Origin: Clostridia bacterium
GTDB taxonomy: Bacteria > Bacillota > Clostridia > Oscillospirales > Butyricicoccaceae
DNA: 35,195 nt
Reading direction: 5' to 3'
Assembly (NCBI GenBank): GCA_900763355.1
Contig: CAAFJY010000108.1
Location: 1-35,195 of the forward strand
Made by a program: the position numbers and the translations under genes. Below the pieces are notes generated by a model that had not been told where the DNA came from, did not search any database, and saw nothing but the letters and a program-made list of their open reading frames with translations. This document shows, in pieces, positions 7,967 through 31,597 of this stretch; positions within the stretch are counted from its first letter, which is position 1, and each line of letters opens with the position of its first letter.

Positions 7967-8009
7967 TAGTCCGTCAAAAACTGAACAGGGCATGATCCGT
8001 CATCGGCGT

Positions 8010-8200
8010 CCGTTGAAAAGCGGGCGCTCAAAAGGAATCCGGTGAGAATCCGGAGCTTAGTTCCGTTAGCTGTATGTATTGGAGCCCGCATCCCGCGGCG
8101 AAAGCCGGCCATTGTGCCCCTCTGGGCGCGAGAAGGTGGGGGTGCGTGCGCGGAGAAGGATTTCTCCATAGGATACGAGCCAGAAGACTTGGTGGTGGGG
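8010..8200 (+). promoter_or_regulatory. Cobalamin riboswitch aptamer (long form with peripheral extension)
   Basis: Core sequence AAAAGGAATCCGGTGAGAATCCGGAGC..TTCCGTTAGCTGTA at 8030-8074. Extension elements are GCCATTG (8109-8115) and GCGAGAAGG (8128-8136). A B12-box-like GAGCCAGAAGACTTGG lies at 8177-8192. The order and spacing match my memory of the Rfam Cobalamin consensus. The boundaries are approximate. Confidence 0.8.
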
Positions 8201-8292
8201 CAGAAACCGCATTTTCCGGGCAGTTTTCCGGCCATGCGGTGCGCGCGGAGAGCGATCATGCACCAAAACACAGAGAACGCGGAAAAAACACG

Positions 8293-8326
8293 GCTGCGGC
8301 GAGAGTGATCTCGCCGCAGCTTTTTG
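8293..8326 (+). terminator. Intrinsic terminator (expression platform of riboswitch 1)
   Basis: GCTGCGGCGAGA gtga TCTCGCCGCAGC forms a perfect 12-bp stem (8293-8304 / 8309-8320), followed by TTTTTGTTTT. It lies 58 nt upstream of the ATG at 8384. Confidence 0.85.
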
Positions 8327-8383
8327 TTTTCCACCGATCGGGAGTGCCCGCTCAGTCAAATCAGACAAGGAAAGGAAATCAGT

Positions 8384-11300
8384 ATGAAACGGAAGATCAT
8401 AAGTCTGATCCTGGCCCTGGCCATGCTCCTGAGCATGATGCCGGCGGCCAGCCTGAGCGTCTTCGCCGCGGATGGGCATACCATCACGGTGAACACAAGC
8501 GCCCAAACGACGTTTGAGACGAAACAGGGCAAACAGGAGACGATCCCCCTGGCGGGTTATTTCACCGACAGTGCGGGACACGATCTCACCTACACTTTGG
8601 AAACGACGGGCCTGGGCCTGCACACCAAGGTCAAGGAGGACACGCTGTACTTTACAGGGTCCGATGCGAAGACCTATTCGGTGGAGGTCAAGGCGGCCTG
8701 CGCCGAGGAAGCGAGCGCCAGCGTCACCTTCACCTTCAAGGTCGCTGAGGCCGACGCCGGGGATGCGCGCCAGTATGGGTACGACGAGACCCCGGCGGAC
8801 AGCGTGACGGTCTATGTCACTGTTTCCAACGACGGCATCCCGCTGCTGGGTAATGACAACACAGTCCTCTCTCACCTGAAGGTTGAGGTCCCCTATTTCG
8901 ACCTGAACAATCAGGGACTGTCGCAGTTTTACCGGTACCATACAGAGAATGGCAGCGGTTCTTATGTAGATAATGTGGTCGTGGAGCGGCCCACCGCTCT
9001 GCACCTCTATCTCTATCTCATCGGGAAATACTATCTGGGCCTGACGGACAAAGAGATCACGCAGGGTTCCGCACAGATCGACGGTGCGGAGGGAAATCAG
9101 GGTGTGTTCTATTTTGATGGCCGCGAGACTGTTCCCTATGAGGACAAAGGCCTGGCGCTCAACGTCACCGGGAGCGCCACGCACATGTATATGAAGGCTT
9201 TCTGGGGCCACGACGAGAACCTGATGTACTACCGCAACCATGTCTATCCTCTCATGAGTCCGGGTACCGGCTCCACGGCGGACTATGTCCTCTTGAGCGA
9301 CGGGGACACCATCGATGTGGCTATGTTCTCCAACTGGAGCTTCTGGCAGAGCGGTGCCTTTGCCTGCTTTGATAAGGATGATTATTCGCTCGAACCGGGC
9401 GGAACGCTGCAATTCACCACGCAGAAATACGATACAAAAAATGTCGCCGACGGCGGCAGCGAGACCATCGAGTCCATCACCGGCCTGGATGTCTTCGTCT
9501 ATGACGAAAACTGGAGGCAGCTGGACAAGGTCTCTCCCGACGAAACCGGCGGCAGCGATTATAGCTATACCTTTGACAAAGCCGGGACCTACTACCTCCT
9601 GGCCATGGATCCCAAAGCGGGGACCAATGATTCCTGCTATGCCCCTGCCACCGCAAAGGTAAAGGTGGCCGTCAACCACACCGTCACCTTCTCCTTCCCC
9701 GAGTGCTTCGAGGGCGAAGCCACCGTGGCGCACGGCGAGGACTACACCTTCAAGCTGGCGGAGCCCTATTTCTCCGACCGGGCGAATTATGAGCTCAGTG
9801 TGAAGCAGATCGGAACGATGGCGCCCAGCACCAGCGCCAACAAGGATGCCATCGACAACGGTGACGGCACCTATACCATCCAGAACGTCACCGGCGATCT
9901 GAAGATCACGCGGAAGCCCAAGGGGAGAAAGCTGGGCTTTACTGTGACCGCCAACAAAGACAAGAAGGACTTGGTCTGCAGCCTGCCCACGGACGAGCCG
10001 GAGTACAAGACGGAGTATGCCTTTAATCTCCAGGATATCGACAGCGACAGCATCTACACCGTGACCGTCAAGGTCAACGGCAAGCCGGTCCCCGTGGAGG
10101 TGGATGACTCCTTGGCCGATATTGGATTCCTGTCCTACACCGTCGATGCCAAGCACATGACCGGCGACGTGGAAATCTATGTGGAGGAGCTGGATAAGAG
10201 CGCCACCATCTCCGTCACCGGCGTGACCCTGGACAAGAGCGCGTTGCGGCTCTTCGTCCCGGGCGGGGAAGCGACCCTGACCGCCACCGTCATCCCCAGT
10301 AACGCCGCCAACCAGACCGTCACCTGGACCTCTTCCGACACCACGGTCGCCGCGGTGGCTGACGGCAAGGTCACCGCTGTTGGCGCGGGCAAAGCCACCA
10401 TCACCGTCACCACCGAGGATGGCGGGCACACCGCCTCCTGCGCCGTCACGGTGCAGGAGGGCGAAGAGCTGACACTTTATGGCCGCATCTACGGCAGTTC
10501 CGTCAACAGCGCCTTTGCCGATCTGACCGGCGATGGCAACGGTGTGGAATACACCTGCCTGGATGTGGAAAAGAAGAGCGGCCTGGATGTGGTGAAGGGC
10601 GTTCTGGACGCCAAAGGCTACACCTATACCGTCACGGCAAACGCAGTCACCAGCATCACCTCCCCCGACGGCGTGACGCTGGCCAACGGCGACGAGACCT
10701 ATGGTCCCGAGTCCGTTTGGGTCGGCACCGTCAACGGGGTCGGCCTGGGAGAGATGGGCATGACCTCTCTGGCTGAGTATATTGTGGACAACGAGTTGAC
10801 CGGCTTTGACGGCGATGAGTTCGTCCTCACATTCACGGAATGCCCGCGTGGGGCGGATGGAGAGCACCATGACACCAACGCTGACAGCAAGTGCGACACC
10901 TGCGGCAAGGTGCTGGTGGCAGAACCCCCCGTCCCCACCCGGAAGGCGGACTACCCCGCCGAGACTGTGGCTACCGTCCAGACCGGGAAGGCCTATCTCC
11001 TTTCCGATCTCCAGACCGGCAAGGTCTTTGACCCCGTGGAGGGCCAGAAGCTGGACTACACGAACTATTACTACCAGCGTTCCACCGACGGCGGTCAGAC
11101 CTGGAGCAACAAGATCGGTTTCCCTGCGGCCACCTTTGGCGGCACCACCATCCAGCTCACCGAGACGGCGGAGGGGACCTACATTTACCGGTTCTATGCC
11201 TCCCACGACGGGAAGAACTTCTCCAAGGACACCTGGACCCTCACCCTCACGGTGCTGGACAATCCGCCCATGGACTTTTCCTTCTTTGTGGGGAAGGACT

Positions 11301-14300
11301 ATACCGGCGGCTATCCCGTCATCAAGCTCTATCCCGTCACCGCCGACAGCGAGGGGAATGAGACCCTGGGGGGCGAGCTGACGGTCACCCAGGGCGAGAT
11401 CGAGAGCAACTACCAGAAGTTCTCTGCCGATCTCATCGCCGGGCGCTATGCCTACCGGGCCTTTGCCAAAAACGCCGAAACCGGGGCCTATGACGTGGCG
11501 CTGGGCGGCATGACACTGGATCTCCCCGCCGACACCAACGTGGACGGCGGCACCGGCGGCGGAAACAGCGTCTATCTCCAGTGCAATTCCTTCTACGTCA
11601 CTTCGAAGAAAACGGATAACACCTATTTCACCGCGGACGAGTACTATGTGGAAGTGGTCTGCCCCATCATGAAGACCTCCTGCGTCATGGGCGACGCCTA
11701 TGTGAAGGGGAATTACACCTATTATCCCACCGTCCTCTATGCCGCGGGTAACGCCTGCCTGTATAACCTCTATGCCTATCCCGACATCGAGGGCTATATG
11801 TTCACCCAGACCATCAACCAGACCTTCCGGGCCGGGTATTCCGCGAACGCCAAGAGCCTGAGCCTCAACACGGCGGTCACGCTCACGGTCACCGTGCCGG
11901 AAAGCGCCGATTTCGGCCTGTATTTCCAGTGGAACAACTTCAACACCACAAAAGTGGAGCCCCTCGGCAGCTGGACGGTCAACGGCGACGGCACCAAGAC
12001 CGCGTCTTATCAGATCTCCAAGACCAACGGCAACTACACCTGGCGCATGAGCGACAGCACCCATGTCACCCAGGCCGGCTGGCTGGCCAGCCAGAGCGGC
12101 GATGCCAGTCTGGCCTTTGCCTTCGCGGAGGATGCGGCCACCGACCGGGTGTCCCACGATTTCTCCCAGCTGGGGAGCCAGACCGCACTCCGGGACGAGG
12201 CCGATCTCCAGGTCAATCTGGACCCCACCGGGTACAAGGCTCTCACCGGCACCACCCGCGTCCGGGCCTATCGCCACTGGCAGCTCATCAACTCCGACGC
12301 CGGGAACATCATGGTGGAGCCCGACTTCCACTGGAACGTCCTCTCCGGCAACGCGTCCTTTGAGACCGTCAACGGCGGCAACACCAAGGCCAACTGGGCC
12401 GACGTCACCCCCGGGACGGAGGATTCCATCCTCACCGTCTATTATGACAGCGTGGATGTGAACCATGGCAGCTACGGCACCCACGGCGGGCTCTATCCCG
12501 CCACCCAGCCCAACCGTCTGGGCGTTATCGTAGTGGGCGGCAGCGGCGTGTCCCACGGTACCGCCGACGCCCATGTGAAATACAACATGGCCGCCGGGGC
12601 CACCACCACCCGCTCCGCCGAATGGGATTACAACTACGATACCTGGTTCTATGAAGCCAGTGAGACCGCGCCCGCCCTCACCTTCACCGTGACGGGCACC
12701 GGCGACACCACGGTGGAATATGCCTTTGTCACCGCCAATGCCGACATGACGGCGGTCAAGACCGATTTCACCGCTGTTTCCGCCGAAAATGGGACCTATA
12801 CCGTTCCTCTGGCGGGCTTCCGCACCCTGGGGGCCGGGAAGGGCGGCACGGTCGTCATCAAGATGACTGACAGCACCGGTGTTTCCTACCGCCTGGTGCG
12901 CGTGGCCGAGGTCACCATCACTGCGGAAAACCTCTCCAACCCCGGGGAGGTCATCATGCCCGGCGACCAGGTCAAGCTCACCTGGACGGGGATGTACCGC
13001 GCCGTGAACAAGATCTCCGGCATCTTTAACCCGCTGCAGTTCAAGCCCACCTATTATCAGGGCGAGACCAAGTATGAGGGCGCGCTGGGCCAGTATCAGA
13101 AGATGAACAACGCCAGCGTCACCGTCGCCATCCCCAAGGATGTGACCTTCGCCGAGGGCGAGGACAGCGTGAAGCTGACCTTCACCGGCGGCTATACCTA
13201 TGGCAGCATGTATTCTGCCTCCAACCCCTTTGCCTTCCTTTACACCATGACCGACACCGGCGTGGGGACCAACTTCAACGCCGTCACCGTCAATTATTAC
13301 ATGAACCACTATGCCGACGCGGTGGTGACGGTCTCCCGCAAGGTGCTCTATGATACCGCGCTCCGCGTCACCGACGAGAGCGGCGCGGCGCTGGAGGGCG
13401 CTGCCGTCGCCCTCACCGGGCCCGAGGGGGATGTGGAAGCCGGGGCCAACGGCCGCTACAGCCTGGGCTACGGGAAATATTCCTATGTCCTGCGCAAAGA
13501 CGGCTATGTGGTCACCCGGGGCAGCTTTGCCCTGGGCTCTGCCGACGCGGACAAGCTGGTGGAGGGCGTTCTCACCATCTCCGCCTCTATGGCCAAGGCC
13601 GGGGAAAATGCCTGGGACGGCACGACCCTCACCGAGCCCACGAAGGATACCGATGGGGCCTGGCTCATCGGCACCGCCGCCGAGCTGGCCTGGTTTGCCA
13701 AGAATGGCGACAAGGGCAGCGCCAAGCTCACCGCCGACATCGACCTGGCGGGCTATGACTGGACCCCCATGAACAAGCTCTACGGCACCTTTGACGGTCA
13801 GGGCCATGTCATCCGCAACCTGTATATCAACAGCAGCAGCTACCCCGTGGGCCTGTTCGGGTATCTCCAGGGCGGGGCCAGCGTCACCCGGCTGGGTGTC
13901 ACCGGCGATGTGACGACCACGAACAAGAGTTACGGTCAGGCCGGCGGCATCGCGGGCTATATGGAAGATAACAGCTCCATCACCCAGTGCTTCAGCGCGG
14001 TCAATGTTACCAGCGGGAAGCACGGCGGCGGCATCGCGGGGTATACCAACACAACCAATGTGGTCATCTCCGACTGCTATGCCACCGGAAACATCACCAC
14101 CGTGTCCGCCAACGAGTGCTATCTGGGCGGCATCTGCGGCAGCTTCTACAACCAGCATGCCGGCGCGAAGCTGACGAACTGCTACTTCAGCGGCACAGTC
14201 AAGGGCTCCGGTGGAAACGCTTCTTATGTGGGCGGCCTGTCTCCCATTCCGAATGAGACATACTTCAGTAACTGCTATTATTTGACTGGCTGCGTCTCCG

Positions 14301-15601
14301 GCGAGAGCCCCAAATACGGCATCACCGGCCTGGGCACCGCCAAGACCGCCGAAGAGCTCAAGGCTCTGGCTCCCACCCTGGGCGGCTGGTTCACCGCCGA
14401 TGCGGGCGGGATCAACAGCGGCTATCCCATCCTCAAGTGGCAGATCGGGCTGAGCTACACCCCCGTGGAGTCGGTCACCCTGGACCAGACCGAGCTGGAG
14501 CTCATCGTGGGCAAGGAAGCGACTCTGACGGCCGCTGCCGCGCCTGCGGATGCCAGCGAGCAGAGCGTCACCTGGACCTCCTCGGCTCCCGAGATCGCCC
14601 GGGTGGAAAACGGCAAGATCACCGCCCTGGCCGAGGGCACTGCCACCATCACCGTCACCACCGTTGACGGCGGTAAGACCGCCCAGTGCCAGGTGACCGT
14701 CAAGCCGATCCCCACCTATTCCGTCACCCTCCCCGCCGACTTCACCGGCGAGAGCACCGTGCAAGACGGCGCGGACTACACCTTCACCGCCAAGGATCCT
14801 GCGAAGTACATCTACACCGTCACTGCCGCGGTGGACGGCGAGACCGTCAGCGTCACCGACAACGGCGACGGGACCTATACGGTCAAAAATGTCACCGGCG
14901 ACCTGGTGATCGAAGCCACCAAGGTCCGCCGGAGCGAGCCCATCACCCCCGTCGGCCCCGCCAAGCCGGACAAGCCCGCCGAGCCCGAAAAGCCCGAACT
15001 CACGGCGCACGCTGCCTTTGTCACCGGGTATGCCGACGGGACGGTGCGTCCCCTGAACAACATCACGCGCAGCGAGGTCGCCGCTATGCTGTGCCGTCTC
15101 CTGACGGAAAGCCAGAAGCAGAATGTGCCGCAGGCGGGCAAGACCTTCTCCGATGTACCTGCGGACGCCTGGTATCGTGAAAACGTTTTGATCCTCGCGG
15201 GGATGGGCGTTATCACCGGGCGGACAGACGGAACCTTTGCCCCCGCACAGAACATCACCCGGGCAGAGTTTGCCGTCATGCTCGTCCGCTTTGCCGGTCT
15301 CACTGGGGAGATGGACAGCGAGGTCACCTTCTCTGACATTTCCGGTCACTGGGCCGAAAGCGCCATCCGCGCCGCCGCTGCCCAGGGCTGGGTCAAGGGC
15401 ATGCGCGACGGGACCTTCCGTCCCGACGACAGCATCACCCGGGCGGAGGCCATGGCCATGCTCTGCCGGATGCTGGGCTGCGAGCCCGCCTCCGCTGCCG
15501 AACTGCCGGAGAATATGCCGGTCTTTGCCGACAATGCCGACACCGGGGCCTGGTATTACCTCTATGTTCAGGAGGCTGCCTGCGCCCGAAACGGGGAATA
15601 A
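8384..15601 (+). CDS. Giant (2405 aa) secreted, SLH-anchored multidomain surface protein
   Basis: ORF 8324..15601 trimmed to the ATG at 8384 behind AAGGAAAGGAAA. Domains in order:
- Signal peptide MKRKIISLILALAMLLSMMPAASLSVFA.
- DUF4430-like segments at ~8798-9330 (ends LMYYRNHVYPLMSPGTGSTADYVLLSDGDTIDVAMF) and ~10469-10845.
- Big_2 domains at ~10209-10455 and ~14465-14705 (..TWTSSD/A..A.V..GK.TA...G.ATITVTT.DGG).
- CarboxypepD_reg-like segment at ~13365-13535.
- GLUG/beta-helix-type block at ~13610-14443 (GLFGY.., GGIAGY.. x2, GGICGS.., ends GYPILKWQ).
- Three SLH repeats at ~15000-15480. Confidence 0.9.
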   Translation: MKRKIISLILALAMLLSMMPAASLSVFAADGHTITVNTSAQTTFETKQGKQETIPLAGYFTDSAGHDLTYTLETTGLGLHTKVKEDTLYFTGSDAKTYSVEVKAACAEEASASVTFTFKVAEADAGDARQYGYDETPADSVTVYVTVSNDGIPLLGNDNTVLSHLKVEVPYFDLNNQGLSQFYRYHTENGSGSYVDNVVVERPTALHLYLYLIGKYYLGLTDKEITQGSAQIDGAEGNQGVFYFDGRETVPYEDKGLALNVTGSATHMYMKAFWGHDENLMYYRNHVYPLMSPGTGSTADYVLLSDGDTIDVAMFSNWSFWQSGAFACFDKDDYSLEPGGTLQFTTQKYDTKNVADGGSETIESITGLDVFVYDENWRQLDKVSPDETGGSDYSYTFDKAGTYYLLAMDPKAGTNDSCYAPATAKVKVAVNHTVTFSFPECFEGEATVAHGEDYTFKLAEPYFSDRANYELSVKQIGTMAPSTSANKDAIDNGDGTYTIQNVTGDLKITRKPKGRKLGFTVTANKDKKDLVCSLPTDEPEYKTEYAFNLQDIDSDSIYTVTVKVNGKPVPVEVDDSLADIGFLSYTVDAKHMTGDVEIYVEELDKSATISVTGVTLDKSALRLFVPGGEATLTATVIPSNAANQTVTWTSSDTTVAAVADGKVTAVGAGKATITVTTEDGGHTASCAVTVQEGEELTLYGRIYGSSVNSAFADLTGDGNGVEYTCLDVEKKSGLDVVKGVLDAKGYTYTVTANAVTSITSPDGVTLANGDETYGPESVWVGTVNGVGLGEMGMTSLAEYIVDNELTGFDGDEFVLTFTECPRGADGEHHDTNADSKCDTCGKVLVAEPPVPTRKADYPAETVATVQTGKAYLLSDLQTGKVFDPVEGQKLDYTNYYYQRSTDGGQTWSNKIGFPAATFGGTTIQLTETAEGTYIYRFYASHDGKNFSKDTWTLTLTVLDNPPMDFSFFVGKDYTGGYPVIKLYPVTADSEGNETLGGELTVTQGEIESNYQKFSADLIAGRYAYRAFAKNAETGAYDVALGGMTLDLPADTNVDGGTGGGNSVYLQCNSFYVTSKKTDNTYFTADEYYVEVVCPIMKTSCVMGDAYVKGNYTYYPTVLYAAGNACLYNLYAYPDIEGYMFTQTINQTFRAGYSANAKSLSLNTAVTLTVTVPESADFGLYFQWNNFNTTKVEPLGSWTVNGDGTKTASYQISKTNGNYTWRMSDSTHVTQAGWLASQSGDASLAFAFAEDAATDRVSHDFSQLGSQTALRDEADLQVNLDPTGYKALTGTTRVRAYRHWQLINSDAGNIMVEPDFHWNVLSGNASFETVNGGNTKANWADVTPGTEDSILTVYYDSVDVNHGSYGTHGGLYPATQPNRLGVIVVGGSGVSHGTADAHVKYNMAAGATTTRSAEWDYNYDTWFYEASETAPALTFTVTGTGDTTVEYAFVTANADMTAVKTDFTAVSAENGTYTVPLAGFRTLGAGKGGTVVIKMTDSTGVSYRLVRVAEVTITAENLSNPGEVIMPGDQVKLTWTGMYRAVNKISGIFNPLQFKPTYYQGETKYEGALGQYQKMNNASVTVAIPKDVTFAEGEDSVKLTFTGGYTYGSMYSASNPFAFLYTMTDTGVGTNFNAVTVNYYMNHYADAVVTVSRKVLYDTALRVTDESGAALEGAAVALTGPEGDVEAGANGRYSLGYGKYSYVLRKDGYVVTRGSFALGSADADKLVEGVLTISASMAKAGENAWDGTTLTEPTKDTDGAWLIGTAAELAWFAKNGDKGSAKLTADIDLAGYDWTPMNKLYGTFDGQGHVIRNLYINSSSYPVGLFGYLQGGASVTRLGVTGDVTTTNKSYGQAGGIAGYMEDNSSITQCFSAVNVTSGKHGGGIAGYTNTTNVVISDCYATGNITTVSANECYLGGICGSFYNQHAGAKLTNCYFSGTVKGSGGNASYVGGLSPIPNETYFSNCYYLTGCVSGESPKYGITGLGTAKTAEELKALAPTLGGWFTADAGGINSGYPILKWQIGLSYTPVESVTLDQTELELIVGKEATLTAAAAPADASEQSVTWTSSAPEIARVENGKITALAEGTATITVTTVDGGKTAQCQVTVKPIPTYSVTLPADFTGESTVQDGADYTFTAKDPAKYIYTVTAAVDGETVSVTDNGDGTYTVKNVTGDLVIEATKVRRSEPITPVGPAKPDKPAEPEKPELTAHAAFVTGYADGTVRPLNNITRSEVAAMLCRLLTESQKQNVPQAGKTFSDVPADAWYRENVLILAGMGVITGRTDGTFAPAQNITRAEFAVMLVRFAGLTGEMDSEVTFSDISGHWAESAIRAAAAQGWVKGMRDGTFRPDDSITRAEAMAMLCRMLGCEPASAAELPENMPVFADNADTGAWYYLYVQEAACARNGE

Positions 15602-15646
15602 ACAGATTTCAGCAAAACGGATGATTTTTTAGATCAAACGGATGCA

Positions 15647-15690
15647 GCGAGGTGCGCCGAGCGGGCGCACCTCGCCTCCGTATCTTTTTA
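15647..15690 (+). terminator. Hairpin pair after the giant gene (possible partial terminator)
   Basis: GCGAGGTGCGCC gagcg GGCGCACCTCGC forms a 12-bp stem at 15647-15675. It is followed by a second small hairpin, CTCCGTA tctttt TACGGAG. The T-run is short and offset from the first stem, so termination may be leaky. Confidence 0.5.
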
Positions 15691-15835
15691 CGGAGCACCG
15701 CGCGGCGCCGCGGTGAAGGGACCGGAAGCGGCAGAGCTCCTTCCGGGCCTTTCAGGACGACGCCGAAGCCCTTTTTCGGGGGCAGGTCATCGTGTTTTTA
15801 CCTTTTTACGCAAAAAATCACCACAGGGAGCGTTT

Positions 15836-19459: not shown

Positions 19460-19550
19460 GTCCCTTTTTCCTGAAATATCCGGAAATAAACCGAGAAAAT
19501 ACTGAAAAATACCGAACCCGCCCGCATTTCCGGGCAGAAGGAGCACCCTT

Positions 19551-20504
19551 ATGAGCGAAAACAGCAAAACCGCCCAGCGCATCCTGGACGAGATCCAAAA
19601 GGTGGTGGTGGGCAAGACCGAAACGGTGGAAAAGATCCTCATGGCCATCCTGGCCGGGGGACATATCCTGATGGAAGATGTCCCTGGCGTGGGAAAGACC
19701 ACCACGGCCATGACCTTTGCCAAGGTCCTGGGGCTGGAGACCCGGAGAGTCCAGTTCACCTCCGACACCGTCCCCTCGGACATCATCGGCTTTTCGGTCT
19801 ATGACAAGGACAGCGGGAAGTTCGTCTACAAGCCCGGCGCGGTGATGACCAACCTCCTGCTGGCCGACGAGATCAACCGCACCTCCAGCAAGACCCAGTC
19901 GGCCCTTTTGGAGGCCATGGAGGAGCGCCGGGTCTCGGTGGACGGGGAGACCTATCCTCTGCCCGCTCCCTTTGTGGTGCTGGCCACCCAGAACCCCGTG
20001 GGCTCGGCGGGCACCACCCGCCTGCCCGAGTCCCAGCTGGACCGCTTTCTCATCCGGGTAAGCATGGGGTATCCCGATTTCCGCTCCCAGGTGAATATCC
20101 TCCGGGACCGGCACGACAAAAATCCCCTGGATGACATCCGCCCCGTGGTGGACAAGGGCGGGCTGATGGACCTCATCGCCGCCGTCACCGCCGTGGAGAT
20201 CCGGGACAGCATCTATGAATACGTCACCACCCTGGCCGAGGCCACCCGCACGCACCCCCTGGTGGAGCTGGGGCTCAGTCCCCGGGGCGCCCTGGCGCTG
20301 TGCCGCATGGCCAAGGCCCACGCCTTCCTTCGCGGGCGGGATTTCGTCACGCCGGAGGATGTTTCCCAGGTCTTCCCCGATGTGGCGGCCCACCGCCTGG
20401 TGTTGTCCTCCAAGGCACGGATGATGGAGAGCGACCCTGGGGAGATCACCCGGGAGATCCTTCAAACCGTATCCATGCCCGCCCTGGGCGGCGCGGGGAA
20501 ATGA
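19551..20504 (+). CDS. MoxR-family AAA+ ATPase
   Basis: Walker A is DVPGVGKTT and Walker B is LLLADEINR. Further motifs LLEAMEERRVSV and VLATQNP..LPESQLDRF are typical of the MoxR/RavA-like clade. The protein is 317 aa. Confidence 0.9.
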   Translation: MSENSKTAQRILDEIQKVVVGKTETVEKILMAILAGGHILMEDVPGVGKTTTAMTFAKVLGLETRRVQFTSDTVPSDIIGFSVYDKDSGKFVYKPGAVMTNLLLADEINRTSSKTQSALLEAMEERRVSVDGETYPLPAPFVVLATQNPVGSAGTTRLPESQLDRFLIRVSMGYPDFRSQVNILRDRHDKNPLDDIRPVVDKGGLMDLIAAVTAVEIRDSIYEYVTTLAEATRTHPLVELGLSPRGALALCRMAKAHAFLRGRDFVTPEDVSQVFPDVAAHRLVLSSKARMMESDPGEITREILQTVSMPALGGAGK

Positions 20505-21646
20505 TGGGGACTGCAAGAGCCCTCTGGGCTCTGTTTACGCTCCTGTGCGCCGGGATGACGGCCCTCTGGGGCAGCGTGGGGACGCTGGCCCTGCTGTGCG
20601 TGCTTCTGCTTTTGCCTCTTTTGCAGCTGGCGGGCGGTCTGCTTTGCCGGAAAAACCTCTCGCTCACGGTGGAGTGTCCTGTCAGCGGCTGGCAGGGGGA
20701 GCCTCTTTCGGTGACAGTGGCGGCGGAAAACGGGAGCGTCCTCCCCATTTGGGGCCTGTCTCTCTCCGTGACAGCGGAAAACGCTCTCACCGGGGAGAAC
20801 GAAAAGACACCCCTGCGGCTGACGCTCCCGCCCGGGGGGCGGCGGCAGGTGACCCTCACCCTGGACGGACAATATGCCGGCCTTCTGCGCATCACCGCCG
20901 CCCGGGCGCGGCTCTATGACAGCTTTTGGCTCATCCCCCTCCCCGCACCGGCGGAGAGCGTGGGAAAATGTGCGCTCCTTCCCCGGTGCTTCCCCATGGA
21001 GACCCTGGTGGGGGCCGACGCTTCCCGCCTGGAGGAGAGCGAGGTCTTTTCCCCGGACAAGCCCGGGGCCGACCCCAGCGAGACCTTCCAGCTGCGGGAA
21101 TATGTCCCCGGGGACAGCCCCCGGCAGATCCACTGGAAGCTCACCGAAAAGCTGGGCCGCCTGACGGTGAAGGATTTTTCATTGCCGGTGGATCGCTCGA
21201 TCCTCCTGATCTGGGAGCGGCGCGAGACCCGGCCCACCCCTGCGGCGGAGGATGCCCAGGCCGCCGTGCTCTTCTCTCTCGGGCAGAGCCTTTTGGAGCA
21301 GGCGGGCGCTTTCACCCTCCTGTGGAACGAGAAAGACAGCCCCTGCTGTCGCCTGGCGGTGGGGGATCTGGACGATCTGGTGGGGCTCACACCCCGTCTG
21401 CTGGCGGCCCGGCCCCTGACCCAGGGGCCCACGGCAGCGCTGGCTCTGTGCCAGACGGCGGGGGAGGAGACTTTTGCCCATATCATCTATCTGGGGGAGC
21501 GGGCCCCCGACTGTCTGCCCCGTCTGCGGGAGCTGGGCCGGGTGACCCTGATCCTTTCCCAGCCAGAGGGCGCACCGGGAGATGTGCCCTGCTATCCCTT
21601 TGACCCCCAGCACAAGGCCCAGCAGCTGCGGGAAGTGCGAATCTGA
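20501..21646 (+). CDS. DUF58 family protein (MoxR-associated, vWA-like fold), two N-terminal TM helices
   Basis: ORF 20300..21646 trimmed to MMGTARALW (ATG at 20501), giving an ATGA overlap with the moxR stop. The DUF58 hallmark REYVPGDSPRQIHWKLTEKLGRLTVKDF is present. Confidence 0.8.
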   Translation: MMGTARALWALFTLLCAGMTALWGSVGTLALLCVLLLLPLLQLAGGLLCRKNLSLTVECPVSGWQGEPLSVTVAAENGSVLPIWGLSLSVTAENALTGENEKTPLRLTLPPGGRRQVTLTLDGQYAGLLRITAARARLYDSFWLIPLPAPAESVGKCALLPRCFPMETLVGADASRLEESEVFSPDKPGADPSETFQLREYVPGDSPRQIHWKLTEKLGRLTVKDFSLPVDRSILLIWERRETRPTPAAEDAQAAVLFSLGQSLLEQAGAFTLLWNEKDSPCCRLAVGDLDDLVGLTPRLLAARPLTQGPTAALALCQTAGEETFAHIIYLGERAPDCLPRLRELGRVTLILSQPEGAPGDVPCYPFDPQHKAQQLREVRI

Positions 21647-21657
21647 GGAGGAAGCAA

Positions 21658-23985
21658 ATGAAACGATCATCCACCCTGACCCTCGCTCCGGCGGCCCTCC
21701 CTGCCCCTTCCCGGCAGGACCGGCTGGTCCGGGCGGGGCTGGCGCTGCTCCTGCTGGGGAGCCTGTGGGCCCTCTGGCTGCAATATGCCGCCCCGGCGGA
21801 GGCCCCCTGGGCTCTTCCGGCGACAGTGAGCGGGCTCCTTTGCCTGGCCAGCGCCCTTCTCCCGGAAAAGGGCTGGGCCCCTTGGGCCCGGCTGGGGACG
21901 CTGGCCCTCCTGCTCCTGGCCGCGCTGGTGGGCAGAAGTGATGTTTCCGCCGGCCTGACCCTCTGCCGCAATGCCTGGCGGGCGGGACGGACGGCGGCCT
22001 CCGGTGTGCTCCACCCGGCGCTGGAAGCGGCGGGAACGGGCAGCGGACTGGTGTTTTACCTGGTGCTGGGCGGGGCGATGGCTCTCCTGTGCCGGGCGAT
22101 CGCGGAAAAGGCCCCCTGTCTGGGGGCGGCGGGCTGCCTGGGCGGCAGTCTGGCGGTGCTCCTTTTGCAGGAAACGGCGGGGGCCCCCTGGGCCGTAGCC
22201 GCCCTTTTGGGGACGGGCGTTTTGCTCCTGGTCTCCGGAACGGGGACCGGGCGGGACCGGCTTTTGCCGGGACTGGCGGCGCTGCTGGCGGTCTTCCTGG
22301 CGGCGGGCGCGGTCCTCATCATTCCCTCGGCCCGGAGCGGAGCCCTCTTTTCCGCCTGGCGGGCAGACAGCAAGCAGGCGCTCCACGCCTTCCGTTACGA
22401 GACCGGGGCGGACCCCCTCCCGGAGGGGGATCTGTCCAACATCACGCCCCGCACCGAGACCGGCCGGGTCATGCTCACTGTGACGCTGGACCAGCCCGAG
22501 CCGCTTTATTTCCGCGGCTTTGCGGGGGAGATCTACACCGGGACCGGCTGGGCGTCCCCCACCGGAGCCGACCTGGCCCGGGAAGGGGAGACCCTCTGGT
22601 GGCTCCATGACCAGGACTTTTATCCCGCACACCAGATGGCTCTGGCTGCCCGGGCGGCGGGAGCGGAGGCGGCGACGGCAGCCTTTACCGTGACCAATCA
22701 GGCCGCCTGTACGGCCTATGCCTATCTCCCCGTCTCGGCGGCGGCGGACAGCCTGATCCGGAACCCCCTCCGCCTGCTGGCGGAGGAAGGATGCCGGGAG
22801 ACGATTTCCGGGACCGTTCTCGTGCATGGAGCGGAGCAGGGGGCGGCCTGGCTGGCCGCCCTTCAGGGGGAAAATGACCCCGCTGCTGCGGCGTTTTTAG
22901 AGGAAGAAAGCGCTTACCGCACCCTGGTAGAGAACGATGCCCTGGAAGTCCCGGACAGCGTCCGGGCCCTCCTTCTTCCCCGGCTGCGGGAGGCGGGCTG
23001 GAGCGAAAGCAGTACCTCCGGCGAGAGCATCCTGGCCGTCCGGTGCTTTTTGGAGGAGAGCTTTTCCTACAGTGACGGGGGCCTCACTCTGGAGGCGGGG
23101 AGCGACCTCATCGAGACTCTCCTGGCCCGGGGCACGGGCAGCGACGTGCATTACGCATCCCTCGCGGTGATGGCCCTGCGCTGCTGCGGCATCCCCGCCC
23201 GCTATGCCGAGGGCTATGTCCTCACGGCCCAGGACGCTTCCCAGGCCGGGGAGGGCGGCATCCCTCTCCGGGACGGCAGCGCCCACGCCTGGGCGGAGGT
23301 CTATCAGCCCGGTCTCGGGTGGCTCCCCCTGGAGCTCACCCCCGGTTATGCCGCCCAGATGGGCACAGCAGGCCAGGCCGGGGGCCTGGCGGGCATGGTC
23401 CCCGGGGAGGACGGAGAAGCCATCGGCGGCTCCGGCACCGGCGAGACCAAGGAGGGGGAGGAATACGAGCCCGAGCCCGATCAGAATGCCGACACCTCAC
23501 CCGACCCCGGCGAGGTCCCCGACGACGGGACCAGCTCCCAGACCCGGCTCCGCCGGGAACGGATTTTGTGGCTGGCGGGAGCGGTCATTTTGCTGCTGCT
23601 TATCCTGTGCGCCGGGGTCTGGCTGCGGCGGAAAAAGATCCTCCGGGCCCGGCAGGCGGCCTTTGACGGGGAAGACCTTTCCCCGGCCCTGGCGGCCCGG
23701 TTCGCTCACTGCGTCCGTCTGCTGGAAGAGCTGGGCTTTGACCGGGCGGGAGGGAGCCTCTATGCTCTCGCCCCGGCCCTGGACGGGCGCTTTGGCCCGG
23801 ACTATGCTTCCCGCTTCCGCCGGATGACGGCGGTGCAGCAGGAGGCCGTCTTCAGCTCCCATCCCCTCTCCCCGGAGCTGCGGGGAGAAATGGCCGGATT
23901 TGACCGGGAGACCACCGCGCTTTTGCAGAAAAACGCGGGCTTTTGGGCAAAACTCCGGCAGAAATGGCTGAAATGTCTCTATTGA
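21658..23985 (+). CDS. TgpA-like polytopic membrane protein with transglutaminase-fold domain (nucleophile Cys apparently replaced) and DUF4129-like C-terminus
   Basis: GGAGGA RBS upstream. The N-terminus is Ala/Leu-rich and multi-TM. The core motifs are GTGSDVHYASLAVMALRCCGIPARYAEGY and GSAHAWAEVYQPGLGWLPLELTPGY. A late TM helix, ILWLAGAVILLLLILCAGVWL, is followed by a helical tail. Confidence 0.8.
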   Translation: MKRSSTLTLAPAALPAPSRQDRLVRAGLALLLLGSLWALWLQYAAPAEAPWALPATVSGLLCLASALLPEKGWAPWARLGTLALLLLAALVGRSDVSAGLTLCRNAWRAGRTAASGVLHPALEAAGTGSGLVFYLVLGGAMALLCRAIAEKAPCLGAAGCLGGSLAVLLLQETAGAPWAVAALLGTGVLLLVSGTGTGRDRLLPGLAALLAVFLAAGAVLIIPSARSGALFSAWRADSKQALHAFRYETGADPLPEGDLSNITPRTETGRVMLTVTLDQPEPLYFRGFAGEIYTGTGWASPTGADLAREGETLWWLHDQDFYPAHQMALAARAAGAEAATAAFTVTNQAACTAYAYLPVSAAADSLIRNPLRLLAEEGCRETISGTVLVHGAEQGAAWLAALQGENDPAAAAFLEEESAYRTLVENDALEVPDSVRALLLPRLREAGWSESSTSGESILAVRCFLEESFSYSDGGLTLEAGSDLIETLLARGTGSDVHYASLAVMALRCCGIPARYAEGYVLTAQDASQAGEGGIPLRDGSAHAWAEVYQPGLGWLPLELTPGYAAQMGTAGQAGGLAGMVPGEDGEAIGGSGTGETKEGEEYEPEPDQNADTSPDPGEVPDDGTSSQTRLRRERILWLAGAVILLLLILCAGVWLRRKKILRARQAAFDGEDLSPALAARFAHCVRLLEELGFDRAGGSLYALAPALDGRFGPDYASRFRRMTAVQQEAVFSSHPLSPELRGEMAGFDRETTALLQKNAGFWAKLRQKWLKCLY

Positions 23986-24058
23986 TCGGGAAAAACCCGC
24001 GCGCTTGATATGATCTCACCCTGTGATACACGCCCCCTGCGTGGAAAGGAAACCACCC

Positions 24059-27000
24059 ATGAAACACACCTTTGGAAAACGCGCCCTGGCCCTGGCCCTC
24101 AGTCTGGCCCTCTGCCTGGGGCTGTTCCCGGCCCAGGCCCTGGCCGCGGGAGACGGGACCCTCTATTTCGCCGTCACCAACGGGGAGACCCTGGTGGTCC
24201 CACCGGAAAAGCTGTCCTACACCGCCGGGATGACCATCAAGGAGGTCCTCCTGGCCAGCGACCACACCTTCGACGGTCTGGGAGAAACGGAGGAATGGAT
24301 CCGCTCGGTGGACGGCGTCATCGCCAACTATGTCCGCTCCGATGAGCAGGGCGGCTATGACCTGAACGCCCCCGCCGACAGCGTGGAAATGTTCTGCCTG
24401 GATGTGCGGGAGGAGGGCTTCCTCACCCCGGGGCTGCAGACCCTGGTCCGGGCCATGGCCGACCTGATGGAAGAGGAGGCCGACGTGCGCGCCGCGGCGA
24501 AGAACGAGTATCAGGCGGCGCTGGAGGCCTATCCCACCGCCGGCAGCGACCGGGCCCGGGAGCTGGCCGCGGACATCACCGACGCGGTGGAGGAGTATCA
24601 GAAAAAGCTTGAAAATACCGCCCCCATCACCTTCACGACGGAAGACGGAACGCCCTATGGCGGCGAGGTCACGGCGGTGAACACTTATGGCCGCGTCTTT
24701 GCCGACGACGACGGCGACGGCACGCTGGAGCTCCCCTGGGGGGAGACCTATGCCTTCACCATCCGCCGGGACTTTGCCCGGGTGGACGGCTCGGTGCGGG
24801 TCACCGGGGCCCAGACCATCACGGCCGATCTCCCCACGGGGGACTGGATGGCCGGGGGCGCACGGCTCTCCCTGTCCGGCGGCAGAGACTTTGAGGACAG
24901 CGTGCTGGAGCTGACCCAGGAGGGTCACACGCTCACCGCCCAGGTCCCCGATACCTATGCCACGGGGAGCGTCTATCTCTGCGCGCAGTATGACCCGGTG
25001 CTCTTCTCCGGCGCCGGGCCCAAGCTCTATGCTTGCTATACCAACACCGATGGGAAGGTCATCTCTCCGGAGACCGACAAGGCGGCCTCCAACCAGACGT
25101 GGAACTCCAAATACACCTCCACGACGGGGGCTCTGTCCGCCGGGAGCGCGGGGACGGAGATCGTCTACCGGGTCACGGTGGAAATGGGAGGCTACACCTA
25201 TTCCCAGGAATATACCCTGGTGCTGGAGCGGAGCCTGTCCCTGTCGGCCCTCCGGGTGACCGACCAGGACGGGACCGGCCAGGCCCCCACCGTGTCCTTT
25301 GACCCGGAGACGCGGGAATACACCTACCGGGTGCTGGACACGGTCACTGCGGTGAAGCTCGAACCCACGGCCTTTCAGAAAAACTATGCCATCCGGGTGA
25401 ATGGGACGCTCCTGAGCGACCTTTCCCCCATCCCCCTCACCGGGGATTCCACCACCGTCACCCTCACCCTGGAGCAGGGAAAGGCCCGGGGGGAATACAC
25501 CCTCACCTTTGTCCGGGCAAAGGGGCAGAATATCACCTTCACCACAGTGGACAGCGACACCGAGCTCCAGGTCTATAACCAAAACGGCGAAGAGCTCAAG
25601 ACCTATCGGGAGCTGGACACCGGCGGAGGATGGGTCTACCGCTACACCCTGGTCCCTGGGGAGACCTATCATTATGTGGCCTCCAAGGGCGAGTTTTATC
25701 ACACCGCCCGGACCTTTACCCTGGAAGAGGCTTCGGGCACCAGCGCCCGGATCTCTGTCCCCACCGTGGACGCCCTCACCGCCCTCTCTCTGGGGCAGGA
25801 GGCCACGCTCAACAGCCCCTATCCCCTGAAAGAGGCCGTGGCCCCGGGGACGCACCGGTATACCCTCACCGTGGGCGACCGGAACGCCGCTCTGTTTGTC
25901 AAGGCCGCGGGGACGGCGGGGATGACCGTCCAGGCCCTGTATACCTCCATCGCGGCCACGGCTGCTTTTCACGGCAAGGCCCGGACGGTGACGGTGCCCA
26001 ACGGCGGTTCCCGGGGACAGAGCCTCGCCAATGCCCTCCTGGGCAACGCCCAGGGGAACGAGATCACCCTCCGCTTCTCCCGGGAGGAGGACGGCATCAC
26101 TCAATATCAGGACTACGTCATCCAGGTGGAGCGGGCGCTCTCCCTGAGGGATCTTCAGGCCGAATGCGGCGGCATCACCTGCAGGCTGGAGCCGGCCTAC
26201 AGCCCTGCCGTCACCGAATATGAGGTGACGGTGCCCATGGCGGCGGCCTCTCTGGACGTTACCGCCCTTCTGCGGGAGGGGGTCTCCCTCCCCTTCGGCG
26301 GAGAGAGCGACGGCTATTGGGTGGAGATCAACGGACAGCGCGCCGCGGGGAAGACCGCGGTCCCCCTCACCGGTACGGAGCAGACAGAGACGGTGGCCAT
26401 CACCGTGGGCAGCGATGTCCAGGACCCCAGCGCGCCCACTCAGATCACTCTGACGGTCCGCAAGGCCGCCCCCGTCCTGGTGACGGCGGCGGTCACGCCG
26501 GAGGCGGGGCTTTTGGTCCTCACCGACCGGGGGACGGGCGCCCGTGTCTGGCCCGGGAGCGACGGCCGCTTTGCACTCAGCGAGGGCTTCTCCTATGACT
26601 GGCGGCTGACGGCCCGGGGCTTTGTGGGCCGGGGCGGCACCCTCTCGGTGGACAAGACCGAGGCGGGGGAGGTCGTCCTCAAGCTCTCCTCCGGGGAGAG
26701 CATCCCCACCCAGGTGGGGGACGACGGCAGCCGCAGGGCTTCCTGGATCCTTTCTCTGGAAAAGGCGGCGGACAACACCACTCTGGACCCCAATTTAGAG
26801 GCGGAATGGGCCGATTTCCGCGGCACAAGCTATACCTATGACGCGGACTCCGGCACCGTCGCCGCCGGCGGGTCCCGGTACACCAACAACGGCGTCACCT
26901 CCGCTCCCATCCCCGTGGAGAGCCTGAACACCGAGCTCTCCTGGGCCACCAAGCTGGGGGACGGCTACAGCAGCGGTGCCGTGGGCTGCCCCATCCTGGT

Positions 27001-28744: not shown

Positions 28745-28757
28745 TTTTTCCCTCAGC

Positions 28758-28792
28758 GCCCCTGCGGCAAAGTGCCGCAGGGGCATTTTTTC
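28758..28792 (+). terminator. Rho-independent terminator ending the 8.4-28.7 kb gene string
   Basis: GCCCCTGCGGCA aagt GCCGCAGGGGC followed by ATTTTTTCT. It lies 14 nt after the stop at 28744. Confidence 0.85.
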
Positions 28793-28834
28793 TCCGGAAA
28801 GGGGCGGGAATGCTGCCAAAACTCGCCATTTTGG

Positions 28835-28863
28835 TTGACAACCGGGCAAAACCGCGATATAGT
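28835..28863 (+). promoter_or_regulatory. Promoter of the riboswitch-2/ECF operon (TTGACA-17 nt-TATAGT)
   Basis: TTGACA at 28835-28840, a 17-nt spacer, then TATAGT at 28858-28863. It sits in a locally AT-richer patch. Confidence 0.65.
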
Positions 28864-28878
28864 AAGATGAATCTTCAG

Positions 28879-28995
28879 GCATATCGCGCCCTGCGGCCCG
28901 GCCGCCGGCGGAATGGGGTGAAAGTCCCCGCGAGTAGGTCACTGTGAAGCCCGGTCCCTCCCGGGATAAGTCAGATACGCCGCGCGCGCGATCCA
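28879..28995 (+). promoter_or_regulatory. Cobalamin riboswitch aptamer (compact form, no long peripheral extension)
   Basis: P1 candidate is ATCGCGC (28884-28890) pairing with GCGCGAT (28987-28993). Core sequence is GGAATGGGGTGAAAGTCCCCGCGAGTAGGTCACTGTGA at 28910-28947. A short hairpin CCCGGtccctcCCGGG follows. A B12-box-like AAGTCAGATACGCC lies at 28968-28981. Confidence 0.8.
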
Positions 28996-29037
28996 GCACT
29001 CCTGCCTGCACCAGGGGGCCCGGCGCACGATCCCAGA

Positions 29038-29071: not shown

Positions 29072-29112
29072 GCGCGCTCCCGGCGGCGGGACATGGGAAA
29101 GGAGCTTTTTTC

Positions 29113-30720: not shown

Positions 30721-30762
30721 AACCGCCCCCGAGGGGCATTTCCCGGGAAATCGGAGGAAATT

Positions 30763-31590: not shown

Positions 31591-31597
31591 GGGCCCC

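Follow-up and report, generated by a model that had tools for sequence, protein, structure and literature searches.

The locus considered here raises the question of why three very large extracellular proteins are placed behind a cobalamin riboswitch. The window, that is, the whole stretch of 35,195 nt that was analysed, is contig CAAFJY010000108.1 (1-35,195, forward) of Clostridia bacterium GCA_900763355.1 (Butyricicoccaceae), whose MAG is a 77%-complete genome of 1.53 Mb. The cobalamin riboswitch aptamer RF00174 (7984-8210, + strand; score 56.6 bits where the gathering score is 31.5; E 1.2e-11) is the single Rfam match of this family in the whole MAG. It lies 174 nt upstream of the first gene, and a terminator-like hairpin with a T-run is found in between (8292-8321, +; 13-bp stem with nine G-C pairs and a T-rich tail), which is probably the expression platform linking the aptamer to that gene. 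The riboswitch-led operon (8384-28744) encodes the three giants, P0001, P0002 and P0003, and is closed by a strong terminator-like hairpin (28758-28784, +; 12-bp stem, 10 G-C pairs, T-run).

By translation and Pfam analysis, P0001 (8384-15601, +) is an SLH-anchored surface protein of about 2405 aa; its ORF opens at 8324 and the Met at 8384 is the likely start. It comprises two Big_2 domains, GLUG, CarboxypepD_reg and a C-terminal triplet of SLH domains. P0002 (15836-19459, +), with an ORF opening at 15713 and a likely start at the Met at 15836, is a repeat protein without strong matches in the Pfam scan, tethered to the membrane by an N-terminal helix. P0003 (24059-28744, +) is a secreted protein of about 1561 aa with a signal peptide, cadherin-like modules, a propeller-like region and Big_3, in which an anchor is absent. 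Between the giants, Pfam places a MoxR AAA+/DUF58/transglutaminase-like triad (19551-23985, +; AAA_3 190 bits, DUF58 20.2 bits and thus under its cut-off of 23.4, Transglut_core 68.5 bits). The SLH triplet, the membrane helix and the signal peptide, together with a membrane-tethered stand-alone DUF4430 protein encoded downstream, agree, as read from the sequences, with the earlier proposal that the modules are displayed at different distances from the membrane. In Pfam scans of the three giants, neither an alpha/alpha toroid nor cohesin or dockerin was found, while Dockerin_1 is present in the P0003 homologues P0437 and P0154. A DUF4465/BtuJ beta-jellyroll identity was discarded, as PF14717 gave zero matches in the giants at E<=1 and the available models (segments 1 and 4, see below) are beta-grasps.

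The sequence-only reading had placed four DUF4430-like modules in these proteins, and the segments and motifs that it quoted are found in the translations where it put them: segments 1 and 2 correspond to residues 159-335 and 716-841 of P0001, segment 3 to residues 799-983 of P0002 and segment 4 to residues 45-128 of P0003. The AF2-ordered cores of segments 1 and 4 (8801-9325 and 24158-24403) nearly coincide with the boundaries that it drew. Membership of Pfam DUF4430 (PF14478) is defined by a gathering score of 23.8 bits. Segments 1, 2 and 4 gave no match to PF14478 at E<=10, and segment 3 stayed under the cut-off (12.6-13.6 bits, E 0.13-0.19); since none of the four reaches the gathering score, they are filed as diverged DUF4430 relatives. 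Half of the refutation envisaged in the earlier reading therefore came about, in that the PF14478 hmmsearch is not significant, whereas profile-profile and fold comparisons are positive and all four segments gain fold or profile support.

The family profile of each segment was compared with a DUF4430 profile from which these proteins had been left out, using 60 column-shuffled controls each. The scores were 82.4 for segment 3, 36.3 for segment 2, 34.1 for segment 4 and 30.1 for segment 1; the controls reached at most 16-22, so that every segment exceeds 60 out of 60. When 84 windows of 160 aa across the three giants were scanned without bias, segment 3 ranked first overall and segments 2 and 1 best within P0001; segment 4, as a single sequence, did not stand out. 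The resemblance of the segments to DUF4430 is more than chance. Segments 3, 1 and 4 give the DUF4430-like reading strong support; that from segment 2, drawn from hhalign and language-model neighbours, is moderate.

Segment 3 (18107-18662, +), a DUF4430 domain by hhalign, a local HMM and its homologues, is the clearest case. Its hhalign probability is 98.2% (E 6.3e-14), and a local DUF4430 HMM built without P0002 gives 25.8 bits at residues 935-980. The homologue P0048, 60% identical, passes the PF14478 cut-off with 31.2 bits, as does another with 25.9 bits, and a further one comes near it (21 bits); with the local HMM, all 151 of 151 family members are matched at the same place. The demonstrable DUF4430 part is the C-terminal stretch of about 90 residues (approximately 18386-18655, P0002 893-981). 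The N-terminal 70 residues alone give zero signal, and the large insertion that the earlier reading assigned to this segment, together with its N-terminal strand, is thus no more than plausible, unlike the C-terminal part, which holds.

Segment 1 (8798-9330, +) was characterized by AF2 modelling, structure search and hhalign as a transcobalamin-beta-like beta-grasp into which about 90 residues are inserted. The model forms one compact domain (pLDDT 96.1, pTM 0.93). In a Foldseek-independent structure search (VIA) against 48,161 PDB representatives, its top five matches are the beta domains of transcobalamin (TC), intrinsic factor (IF) and haptocorrin (HC), in four entries, and 3U7Z, at Z values (haptocorrin 9.0/8.7, TC 7.9, IF 7.8, 3U7Z 7.0-7.2) that lie in the 7-9 range where a shared common fold is what can be claimed. 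The alignments to these five cover 90-98 residues, that is, whole beta domains. The next match has Z 6.3, and generic beta-grasps (Urm1, SAMP, MoaD) follow close behind. The large insertion proposed for this segment is borne out by the model, in which some 96-98 residues, spread over a span of 186, superpose on an entire beta domain. The hhalign match to DUF4430 is weak (probability 45%, E 2.2e-4). Neither Pfam nor NCBIfam matches segment 1, which founds an unannotated family of about 195 aa with 497 representative clusters and a set of almost invariant polar positions peculiar to it.

Segment 4 (24155-24405, +) is a compact transcobalamin-beta/DUF4430-type beta-grasp right after the signal peptide, according to AF2 (pLDDT 82.3), Foldseek, VIA and hhalign (81.5%, E 1.1e-5, borderline positive). 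Foldseek retrieves TC (E 5.9e-4, probability 1.00) and 3U7Z (probability 1.00). In VIA, the top 15 and top 5 rows are all TC, HC, IF or 3U7Z (Z 7.8-8.8, followed by 6.2), and the same five chains as for segment 1 are matched at Z 8.8-8.0 out of 48,161. A comparison of the models with the transcobalamin beta domain had been suggested beforehand; for segments 1 and 4 it places the TC/IF/HC beta domains and 3U7Z ahead of generic ubiquitin-like folds, as expected of the five-stranded beta-grasp core of the transcobalamin-like SLBB clade (PMC1796856). A ligand-contacting beta-hairpin insert behind the core helix is another trait of that clade. In the models, two strands pair beyond the helix (130-135 and 138-144 in segment 1, 49-52 and 57-62 in segment 4), which might be its counterpart; aligned lengths for the two segments are 86-98 residues to TC-beta versus 65-87 to plain beta-grasps.

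Segment 2 (10454-10867, +), located in a variable cassette of P0001, is probably a DUF4430-like module, judging from hhalign and the ESM Atlas. The hhalign-aligned core (10544-10840) covers 84 of 107 profile columns with a borderline positive probability of 85% (E 5.8e-6), which is soft because the family has little diversity (Neff 1.4). By the ESM Atlas language model, the top match is 0.91 and DUF4430 clusters make up 22 of the 30 neighbours; moreover, scored with the local DUF4430 HMM, 13 members of the family attain 13.8 bits.

The giants are probably the outer antennae of a B12-scavenging system, with corrinoid binding as a prediction, because they stand behind the only detectable B12 riboswitch and carry diverged folds of the B12-carrier type. 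The corrinoid-binding character that had been suggested for the modules finds independent support in the operon riboswitch and in the riboswitch enrichment of the segment-1 and segment-3 families. The segment-1 module was followed in 41 species-level genomes: 13 of the 41 genes start within about 600 nt after a same-strand RF00174 and 18 have RF00174 upstream within 6 kb; the flanks of the other 23 are without a riboswitch, including those of all five small dockerin forms (427-503 aa). Three segment-3-type genes each lie 15-122 nt downstream of their own riboswitch.

The next operon (29113-35103, +; Pfam) encodes an SLH toroid-like protein, a stand-alone DUF4430, a CbiQ-like gene with a weak Pfam match and an ABC-ABC-S-component fusion. 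The SLH protein (29113-30720) has weak toroid-type matches (SQHop_cyclase_C, 28.2 bits), and the stand-alone protein (30763-31590, +) is a canonical, membrane-tethered DUF4430 (PF14478, 65.2 bits). As the toroid is absent from the giants and present as this separate SLH protein, a toroid-beta partnership would be in trans. Regarding regulation, the transporter operon has a promoter-like site of its own (TTGACA-17-TATAGT, 28835-28863, after the terminator hairpin), and no Rfam cobalamin riboswitch was detected ahead of it in 28745-29130, so that giants and transporter may or may not be co-regulated. The MAG encodes B12-binding-domain proteins and CobS, in keeping with the B12 reading; CbiC was not found in the 77%-complete assembly and is present in 7 of 16 congeners.

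It is rather likely that the operon at 8384-28744 displays four diverged transcobalamin-like SLBB (DUF4430-type) beta-grasp modules serving a predicted capture and relay of corrinoids. Under low cobamide, the riboswitch would allow expression of the operon, and the beta modules could act as first corrinoid catchers of low-to-moderate affinity at differing heights in and above the wall: segment 1 near the tip of P0001, segment 2 further in, segment 3 on the membrane-tethered P0002 and segment 4 at the N-terminus of the anchor-less P0003. The corrinoid would be handed inward to the SLH-anchored alpha/alpha-toroid protein and the canonical membrane-tethered DUF4430, which could together close on the ligand like the two domains of transcobalamin, and would finally reach the ECF-type importer encoded next to them. 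In this scheme the binding of ligand, its hand-over and any co-operation of the giants with the operon downstream are inferred.

The modules could also be true DUF4430 beta-grasp relatives that bind no corrinoid, working within large surface assemblies as structural spacers, in adhesion or glycan binding, or as adaptors between proteins, with the riboswitch present for some other B12-linked reason. SLBB and beta-grasp domains have many ligands, and the fold alone gives no function (PMC1796856); the segment-1 family is often a mere dockerin-borne module (23 of 82 short representatives), and the closest relatives of segment 2 sit in cohesin scaffolds whose loci, 14 of 14, are free of riboswitches within 4 kb. 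This alternative is nevertheless unlikely, though it deserves to be kept in mind, since cobalamin riboswitches on secreted proteins suggest uptake, the 13 of 41 directly upstream riboswitches are far above the background of one per 1.5 Mb here, and the four modules adjoin a canonical set of toroid, DUF4430 and ECF importer. Binding of another tetrapyrrole, such as haem feeding an ECF-type haem importer (as has been put forward for Lsa1839/1840, the split transcobalamin-like pair of Lactobacillus sakei), seems improbable. A published TC-like alpha/beta pair with an ECF module has been implicated in haem uptake (bioRxiv 10.1101/864751), and the S-component here matches only generically (ECF-ribofla_trS and ECF_trnsprt); against this, the regulatory RNA ahead of the giants, as of many relatives, is a cobalamin aptamer, and the window showed no haem-related genes.

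That part of the similarity comes from motifs matching by chance in beta-rich sequence, instead of from homology, is very improbable, and would chiefly concern segment 2 and the N-terminal half of segment 3. The negative direct PF14478 scans, the low Neff of the segment-2 family, the signal-less start of segment 3 and the insignificance of all segment-to-segment comparisons (E 0.01-0.4) point that way. However, the observed scores beat all 60 column shuffles by at least 10 units, segment 2 is the best P0001 window and also has DUF4430 clusters as neighbours in a language-model comparison that is independent of it, and for segments 1 and 4 the structural models settle the matter.

Several known systems come close to the favoured reading, that of diverged transcobalamin-like modules capturing corrinoids. 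Concerning the domains themselves, transcobalamin-like SLBB domains in stand-alone and large multidomain extracellular proteins were described by Burroughs, Balaji, Iyer and Aravind in 2007, including fusions to Ig-like domains and a beta-propeller, an alpha/alpha toroid neighbourhood and a predicted role in B12 scavenging (PMC1796856). The modules here are of the same beta-grasp type and occur likewise in secreted or surface proteins of Gram-positive bacteria (the DUF4430 structure 3U7Z is from Ruminococcus gnavus). Unlike those domains, three of the four escape Pfam detection, segment 1 is a distinct subfamily of about 195 aa with some 90 residues inserted, one riboswitch-led operon distributes four diverged modules among its three giants, and relatives carry a dockerin in place of the SLH anchor. 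The structures that segments 1 and 4 match best, over the whole domain of about 100 residues (Z 7.5-9.0), are the mammalian TC, IF and HC beta domains (2BB6, 2PMV, 4KKI/4KKJ, 5NO0/5NP4), but sequence identity is 9-16% and the toroid (PF01122-type) is unfused, with a candidate in the next operon. On its own, the human TC beta domain binds both cyanocobalamin and cobinamide, and assembly of TC alpha and beta is cobalamin-dependent (PMC5599065).

In concept, the system resembles the Bacteroides cobamide relay of BtuG, BtuH and BtuJ/DUF4465 (PMC6143338, PMC8941943, PMC13398666, PMC13616437), where several surface binders from B12-riboswitch-controlled loci capture cobamides ahead of a transporter. 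The folds used there are unrelated (beta-propeller, Ig-like plus globular domain, beta-jellyroll), and the binders are anchored as lipoproteins on an outer membrane and served by a TonB-dependent importer. A split toroid and beta-domain pair beside ECF components is shared with Lsa1836-1840 of Lactobacillus sakei, where an ECF-like importer assigned to haem uptake goes with secreted transcobalamin alpha-like and beta-like proteins that are separate from each other (bioRxiv 10.1101/864751); that system is without giant multi-module proteins, and a cobalamin riboswitch was not reported there. As in cellulosome cohesin-dockerin assemblies, the last domain in relatives of P0001 and P0003 is a type I dockerin and the closest relatives of the segment-2 module sit in cohesin scaffolds, whereas the three giants themselves lack both and glycoside hydrolases are not involved. 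Tentatively, and with rather less than even confidence, gut Oscillospiraceae and relatives may possess a Gram-positive cobamide relay outside the cell that is so far uncharacterised and is controlled by cobalamin riboswitches. It would consist of several deeply diverged transcobalamin-beta modules (including the unannotated, insertion-bearing family of at least 497 clusters) on giant scaffolds, held by SLH domains here and, in relatives, docked through dockerins onto cohesin scaffolds; such an arrangement would be a kind of 'cellulosome' that captures the vitamin.

All the relevant genes of the window lie on the + strand, in a MAG of 1.53 Mb that is 77% complete. The first giant extracellular protein, P0001 (ORF 8324-15601, likely start 8384; 2,405-2,425 aa), gives Big_2, GLUG and CarboxypepD_reg hits and carries three C-terminal SLH domains. 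It is followed by P0002 (15713-19459, likely start 15836), which has a membrane helix at its N-terminus, an acidic linker rich in Pro, repeats and a tail rich in Cys and His, by a MoxR/DUF58/transglutaminase-like triad (19551-23985), and by P0003 (likely 24059-28744), which combines a signal peptide with cadherin-like modules, Big_3 and a propeller hit of the PQQ_2 type. Further downstream lie an SLH protein (29113-30720), which gives weak hits of the alpha/alpha-toroid type, and a bona fide DUF4430 protein (30763-31590; PF14478, 65.2 bits). The window ends with two further genes, one CbiQ-like by a weak Pfam match (E 0.003) and the other an ABC-ABC-S-component fusion.

The sequence-only reading had proposed that DUF4430-like modules recur within the three giants, as segments 1 and 2 in P0001, segment 3 in P0002 and segment 4 in P0003. 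The motifs that it quoted for the four segments agree exactly with the translations, and the recurrence is supported at the level of fold and homology. Direct searches show little of this. DUF4430 was absent from the Pfam lists of whole P0001, P0002 and P0003 (E<=1). When the excised segments were scanned with PF14478, segments 1, 2 and 4 were missed and segment 3 scored only below threshold, through its last 40 residues (E 0.19, 12.6 bits); a six-frame genome scan picked out the same place at 13.6 bits. NCBIfam gave zero hits for all four segments, and a PDB sequence search with the canonical DUF4430 protein returned nothing useful. Taken literally, the PF14478 result goes halfway to refuting the proposal, which named a lack of significant PF14478 or HHpred hits as counter-evidence; more sensitive profile and fold comparisons, which proved positive, were needed to decide.

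The DUF4430 profile used for these comparisons drew solely on close relatives that the stand-alone gene has in 30 related genomes. On iteration it took in P0002 at round 2, so this version was discarded as circular, and the round-1 and P0002-excluded profiles were used. Column shuffling (60 per family alignment) gave scores of at most 22, against 30-82 observed. Of 84 windows scanned across the three proteins, segment 3 was the highest-ranking; within P0001, segments 2 and 1 came out on top, and segment 4 was unremarkable as a single sequence.

Segment 3 provides the clearest sequence signal. The P0002-free profile scores residues 935-980 of P0002 at 25.8 bits, and the segment-3 family (120 homologues) aligns with the DUF4430 alignment over DUF columns 16-107 (hhalign 98.2%, E 6.3e-14). 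The equivalent place in P0048, a 60% identical homologue, lies above Pfam's own PF14478 cut-off (31.2 bits), as does a distant 784-aa relative (25.9 bits), and a local DUF4430 HMM matches all 151 family members at the same position. The first 70 residues of segment 3 gave no signal alone. The DUF4430 assignment stands for the C-terminal part of the segment. For the large insertion ascribed to it, two relatives, in which the N- and C-terminal pieces are collinear with a shorter spacer at marginal E-values, tentatively suggest that segment 3 is one domain with an insertion of variable length; its N-terminal limit is provisional.

Segment 1 is more remote in sequence. An exhaustive HMMER search retrieved 497 representative clusters, 360 of them at E<=1e-10, with matches that almost always span the whole 196-residue query in host proteins of 130 to 2,800 aa. 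By these matches it is a discrete, widespread domain, which no Pfam or NCBIfam model covers; it was found in 5 of 301 order-level genomes. AlphaFold2, with an 83-sequence alignment, predicts one compact domain (pLDDT 96.1, pTM 0.93). Foldseek returned nothing at E<=0.001 with this model, its top nine rows being haptocorrin (HC), transcobalamin (TC), the TC beta domain and the DUF4430 structure 3U7Z. VIA-align matched it to the haptocorrin beta domain over 96 residues (Z 9.0, rmsd 2.2 A), to TC (Z 7.9), to intrinsic factor (IF; Z 7.8) and to 3U7Z (Z 7.2, 91/97 residues aligned). In a Foldseek-independent comparison against 48,161 representatives, the top five were exactly HC/TC/IF/3U7Z chains (8.7, 7.9, 7.8, 7.5 and 7.0), followed by SAMP1/MoaD-type beta-grasps at Z 6.3 and below. 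Against DUF4430, hhalign scores segment 1 weakly (45%, E 2.2e-4), and the alignment places its conserved ...NLMYYRNH...DGD.ID... on the GWMY.VNG...DGD motif of DUF4430. Z-scores alone justify only "beta-grasp", and a TC-like module is the best reading of the modelled domain when ranking, full beta-domain coverage and sequence signal are combined.

The large insertion proposed for segment 1 is borne out: the structural alignments run from model residue 7 to 192 yet pair only ~96-98 residues, so that ~90 residues are insertions. Within the family alignment (window 8771-9358), S19, D21, Y42, D44, R55, H78, W145, N150 and Y153 (196-aa query numbering) are at least 90% conserved, and several near-invariant polar or aromatic positions fall within the inserted parts. 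This conservation hints at a candidate defined ligand site, unlike that of canonical DUF4430. The local HMM found canonical DUF4430 in none of 150 representatives of the segment-1 family, and PF14478 was not among the families listed for 82 short ones; a few proteins encoded near segment-1 genes, and two giants, do have it.

Segment 4 has few homologues, mostly close: P0003-like proteins of other species, plus five proteins with a segment-1-type domain as well. Of the 301 order-level genomes searched, only the window's own was positive for segment 4. Its AF2 model (pLDDT 82.3) matched transcobalamin (Foldseek E 5.9e-4, probability 1.00) and 3U7Z (probability 1.00). With VIA-align, the top 15 rows and the top five representatives were all TC/HC/IF/3U7Z (Z 7.8-8.8, 86-94 residues aligned), with a clear drop to the next Z of 6.2. 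The models of segments 1 and 4 both match TC/HC/IF beta domains and 3U7Z best. For segment 4, hhalign against DUF4430 gave 81.5% (E 1.1e-5), and Atlas neighbours (0.83) a weak lead.

Segment 2 is quite probably a DUF4430-like module, judging from profile and cluster comparisons. It aligns with DUF4430 over 84 columns (hhalign 85%, E 5.8e-6), 22 of its 30 nearest Atlas clusters are DUF4430 (top score 0.91, 196 shared features), and with the local DUF4430 HMM 13 members of the family reach 13.8 bits. The homologues of segment 2, 67-78% identical, are modules of ~840-aa proteins in which cohesin domains occur as well, the module being distinct from the cohesin. In P0125, the closest P0001 ortholog (91% identical over residues 847-2425, 72% upstream of the cassette), the cassette holding segment 2 (residues 449-846; window 9668-10861) is replaced by unrelated sequence. 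This swap, the likeness to cohesin-scaffold modules of other gut bacteria and the failure to find segment 2 in any of 16 congeners suggest domain shuffling or transfer.

The families of the four segments have no detectable mutual similarity (E 0.01-0.4), each being nearer to canonical DUF4430, and therefore represent old, separately diverged lineages rather than recent duplicates.

A cobalamin riboswitch (RF00174) lies at 7984-8210 (56.6 bits), the only one in the window according to Rfam and the sole RF00174 match in the whole MAG. On its 3' side follow a 13-bp terminator-like hairpin (8292-8321) and P0001. A strong terminator-like hairpin (28758-28784) lies 3' of P0003, and 3' of it a near-consensus promoter-like TTGACA-17-TATAGT (28835-28863). 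No cobalamin riboswitch was found ahead of the SLH-toroid, DUF4430 and ECF genes (28745-29130), even at E<=10. With none there, and a hairpin and promoter-like site in between, the riboswitch-led unit appears to be made up of the giants themselves. B12-binding-domain proteins and CobS are also encoded in the genome; a search for CbiC, present in 7 of 16 congeners, was negative in this 77%-complete MAG.

The association extends to related loci, labelled as gut MAGs of Oscillospiraceae, Faecousia and Butyricicoccaceae. Among 41 species-level genomes with a segment-1 module, from a search with a single segment-1 sequence, 13 have a same-strand RF00174 within ~600 nt before the start of the segment-1 gene, and 18 have one in the 6 kb upstream. 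Given one riboswitch per 1.5 Mb as background, the enrichment is very large, in genomes that are related and not independent. In three of these loci, a protein of 617-677 aa containing a segment-3-type DUF4430 is transcribed divergently, 15-122 nt behind a riboswitch of its own. Opposite-strand, back-to-back cobalamin riboswitches (97-105 bits each) occur in loci L068 (4358-5458), L074 (4661-5431) and L073 (631-1746), with a segment-1-type giant one way and, in L068 and L074, a segment-3-type DUF4430 protein the other. In locus L069, a TPP riboswitch (3917-4029, 68.2 bits) precedes a weak cobalamin riboswitch on the same strand by ~0.8 kb, and both lie before a segment-1-type gene. Segment-1 modules with 62-71% identity to the window's also occur in L053, L057 and L078, contigs assigned to Alloprevotella, Bacteroidaceae and Coriobacteriaceae; mis-binning is the probable reason, rather than cross-phylum transfer. 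No riboswitch was found near the segment-2 family in 14 loci, which are cohesin/dockerin/GLUG clusters.

The means of display varies among relatives. Type I dockerins occur in 23 of 82 short segment-1-family representatives and in 23 of 41 genomic segment-1 proteins (L043-L083; single-sequence phmmer screen). Four P0001-like proteins checked with Pfam (L083, L048, L055 and L071) end in a type I dockerin instead of SLH, and lie directly behind a cobalamin riboswitch. Small Ig + segment-1 + dockerin proteins (427-503 aa) had no riboswitch in the available flanks. In the window's genome, the dockerins and cohesins all lie on other contigs (C176, C40). No anchor is recognisable in P0003; its homologues P0437 and P0154, 26-47% identical in the N-terminal module, bear a C-terminal Dockerin_1.

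On its own, the human TC beta domain binds both cyanocobalamin and cobinamide, and alpha/beta assembly is ligand-dependent (PMC5599065); given this, a two-step model would be the most economical. The displayed beta modules would be the first to catch corrinoids, before passing them to the pair of toroid and DUF4430 protein and to the ECF importer. The ligand may be another one, as a related split system, that of L. sakei, has been assigned to haem (bioRxiv 10.1101/864751), or the modules may have a structural role that involves no corrinoid binding. Two-step capture and hand-over of corrinoids is a plausible predicted function for these modules. The locus offers concrete, expressible candidates in the form of four small domains (~85-195 aa), and a large domain family that is absent from current library annotation, yet tied to cobalamin riboswitches in one third of the species examined.

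The BtuG/H/J relay of Bacteroides is well described, while to our knowledge extracellular cobamide competition by Gram-positive gut anaerobes is essentially unstudied. The literature searched gave no case of dockerins or giant Gram-positive surface proteins tied to B12 capture. Should the modules bind corrinoids, this would at last put to the test what was predicted in 2007 for bacterial transcobalamin-like domains, broaden the sequence definition of DUF4430, and demonstrate a non-carbohydrate use of SLH and cohesin-dockerin display.

Burroughs et al. (2007, PMC1796856) described transcobalamin-like SLBB domains that stand alone or form part of large extracellular multidomain proteins, fused to Ig-like, FIVAR, fasciclin or beta-propeller domains and with toroids adjacent, and already predicted B12 scavenging for them. 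The window locus is a variant of the same kind. Three points are new in it: the modules have diverged so deeply that Pfam misses three of the four; one family, of 195 aa, bears an insertion and is associated with riboswitches; and SLH alternates with dockerin.
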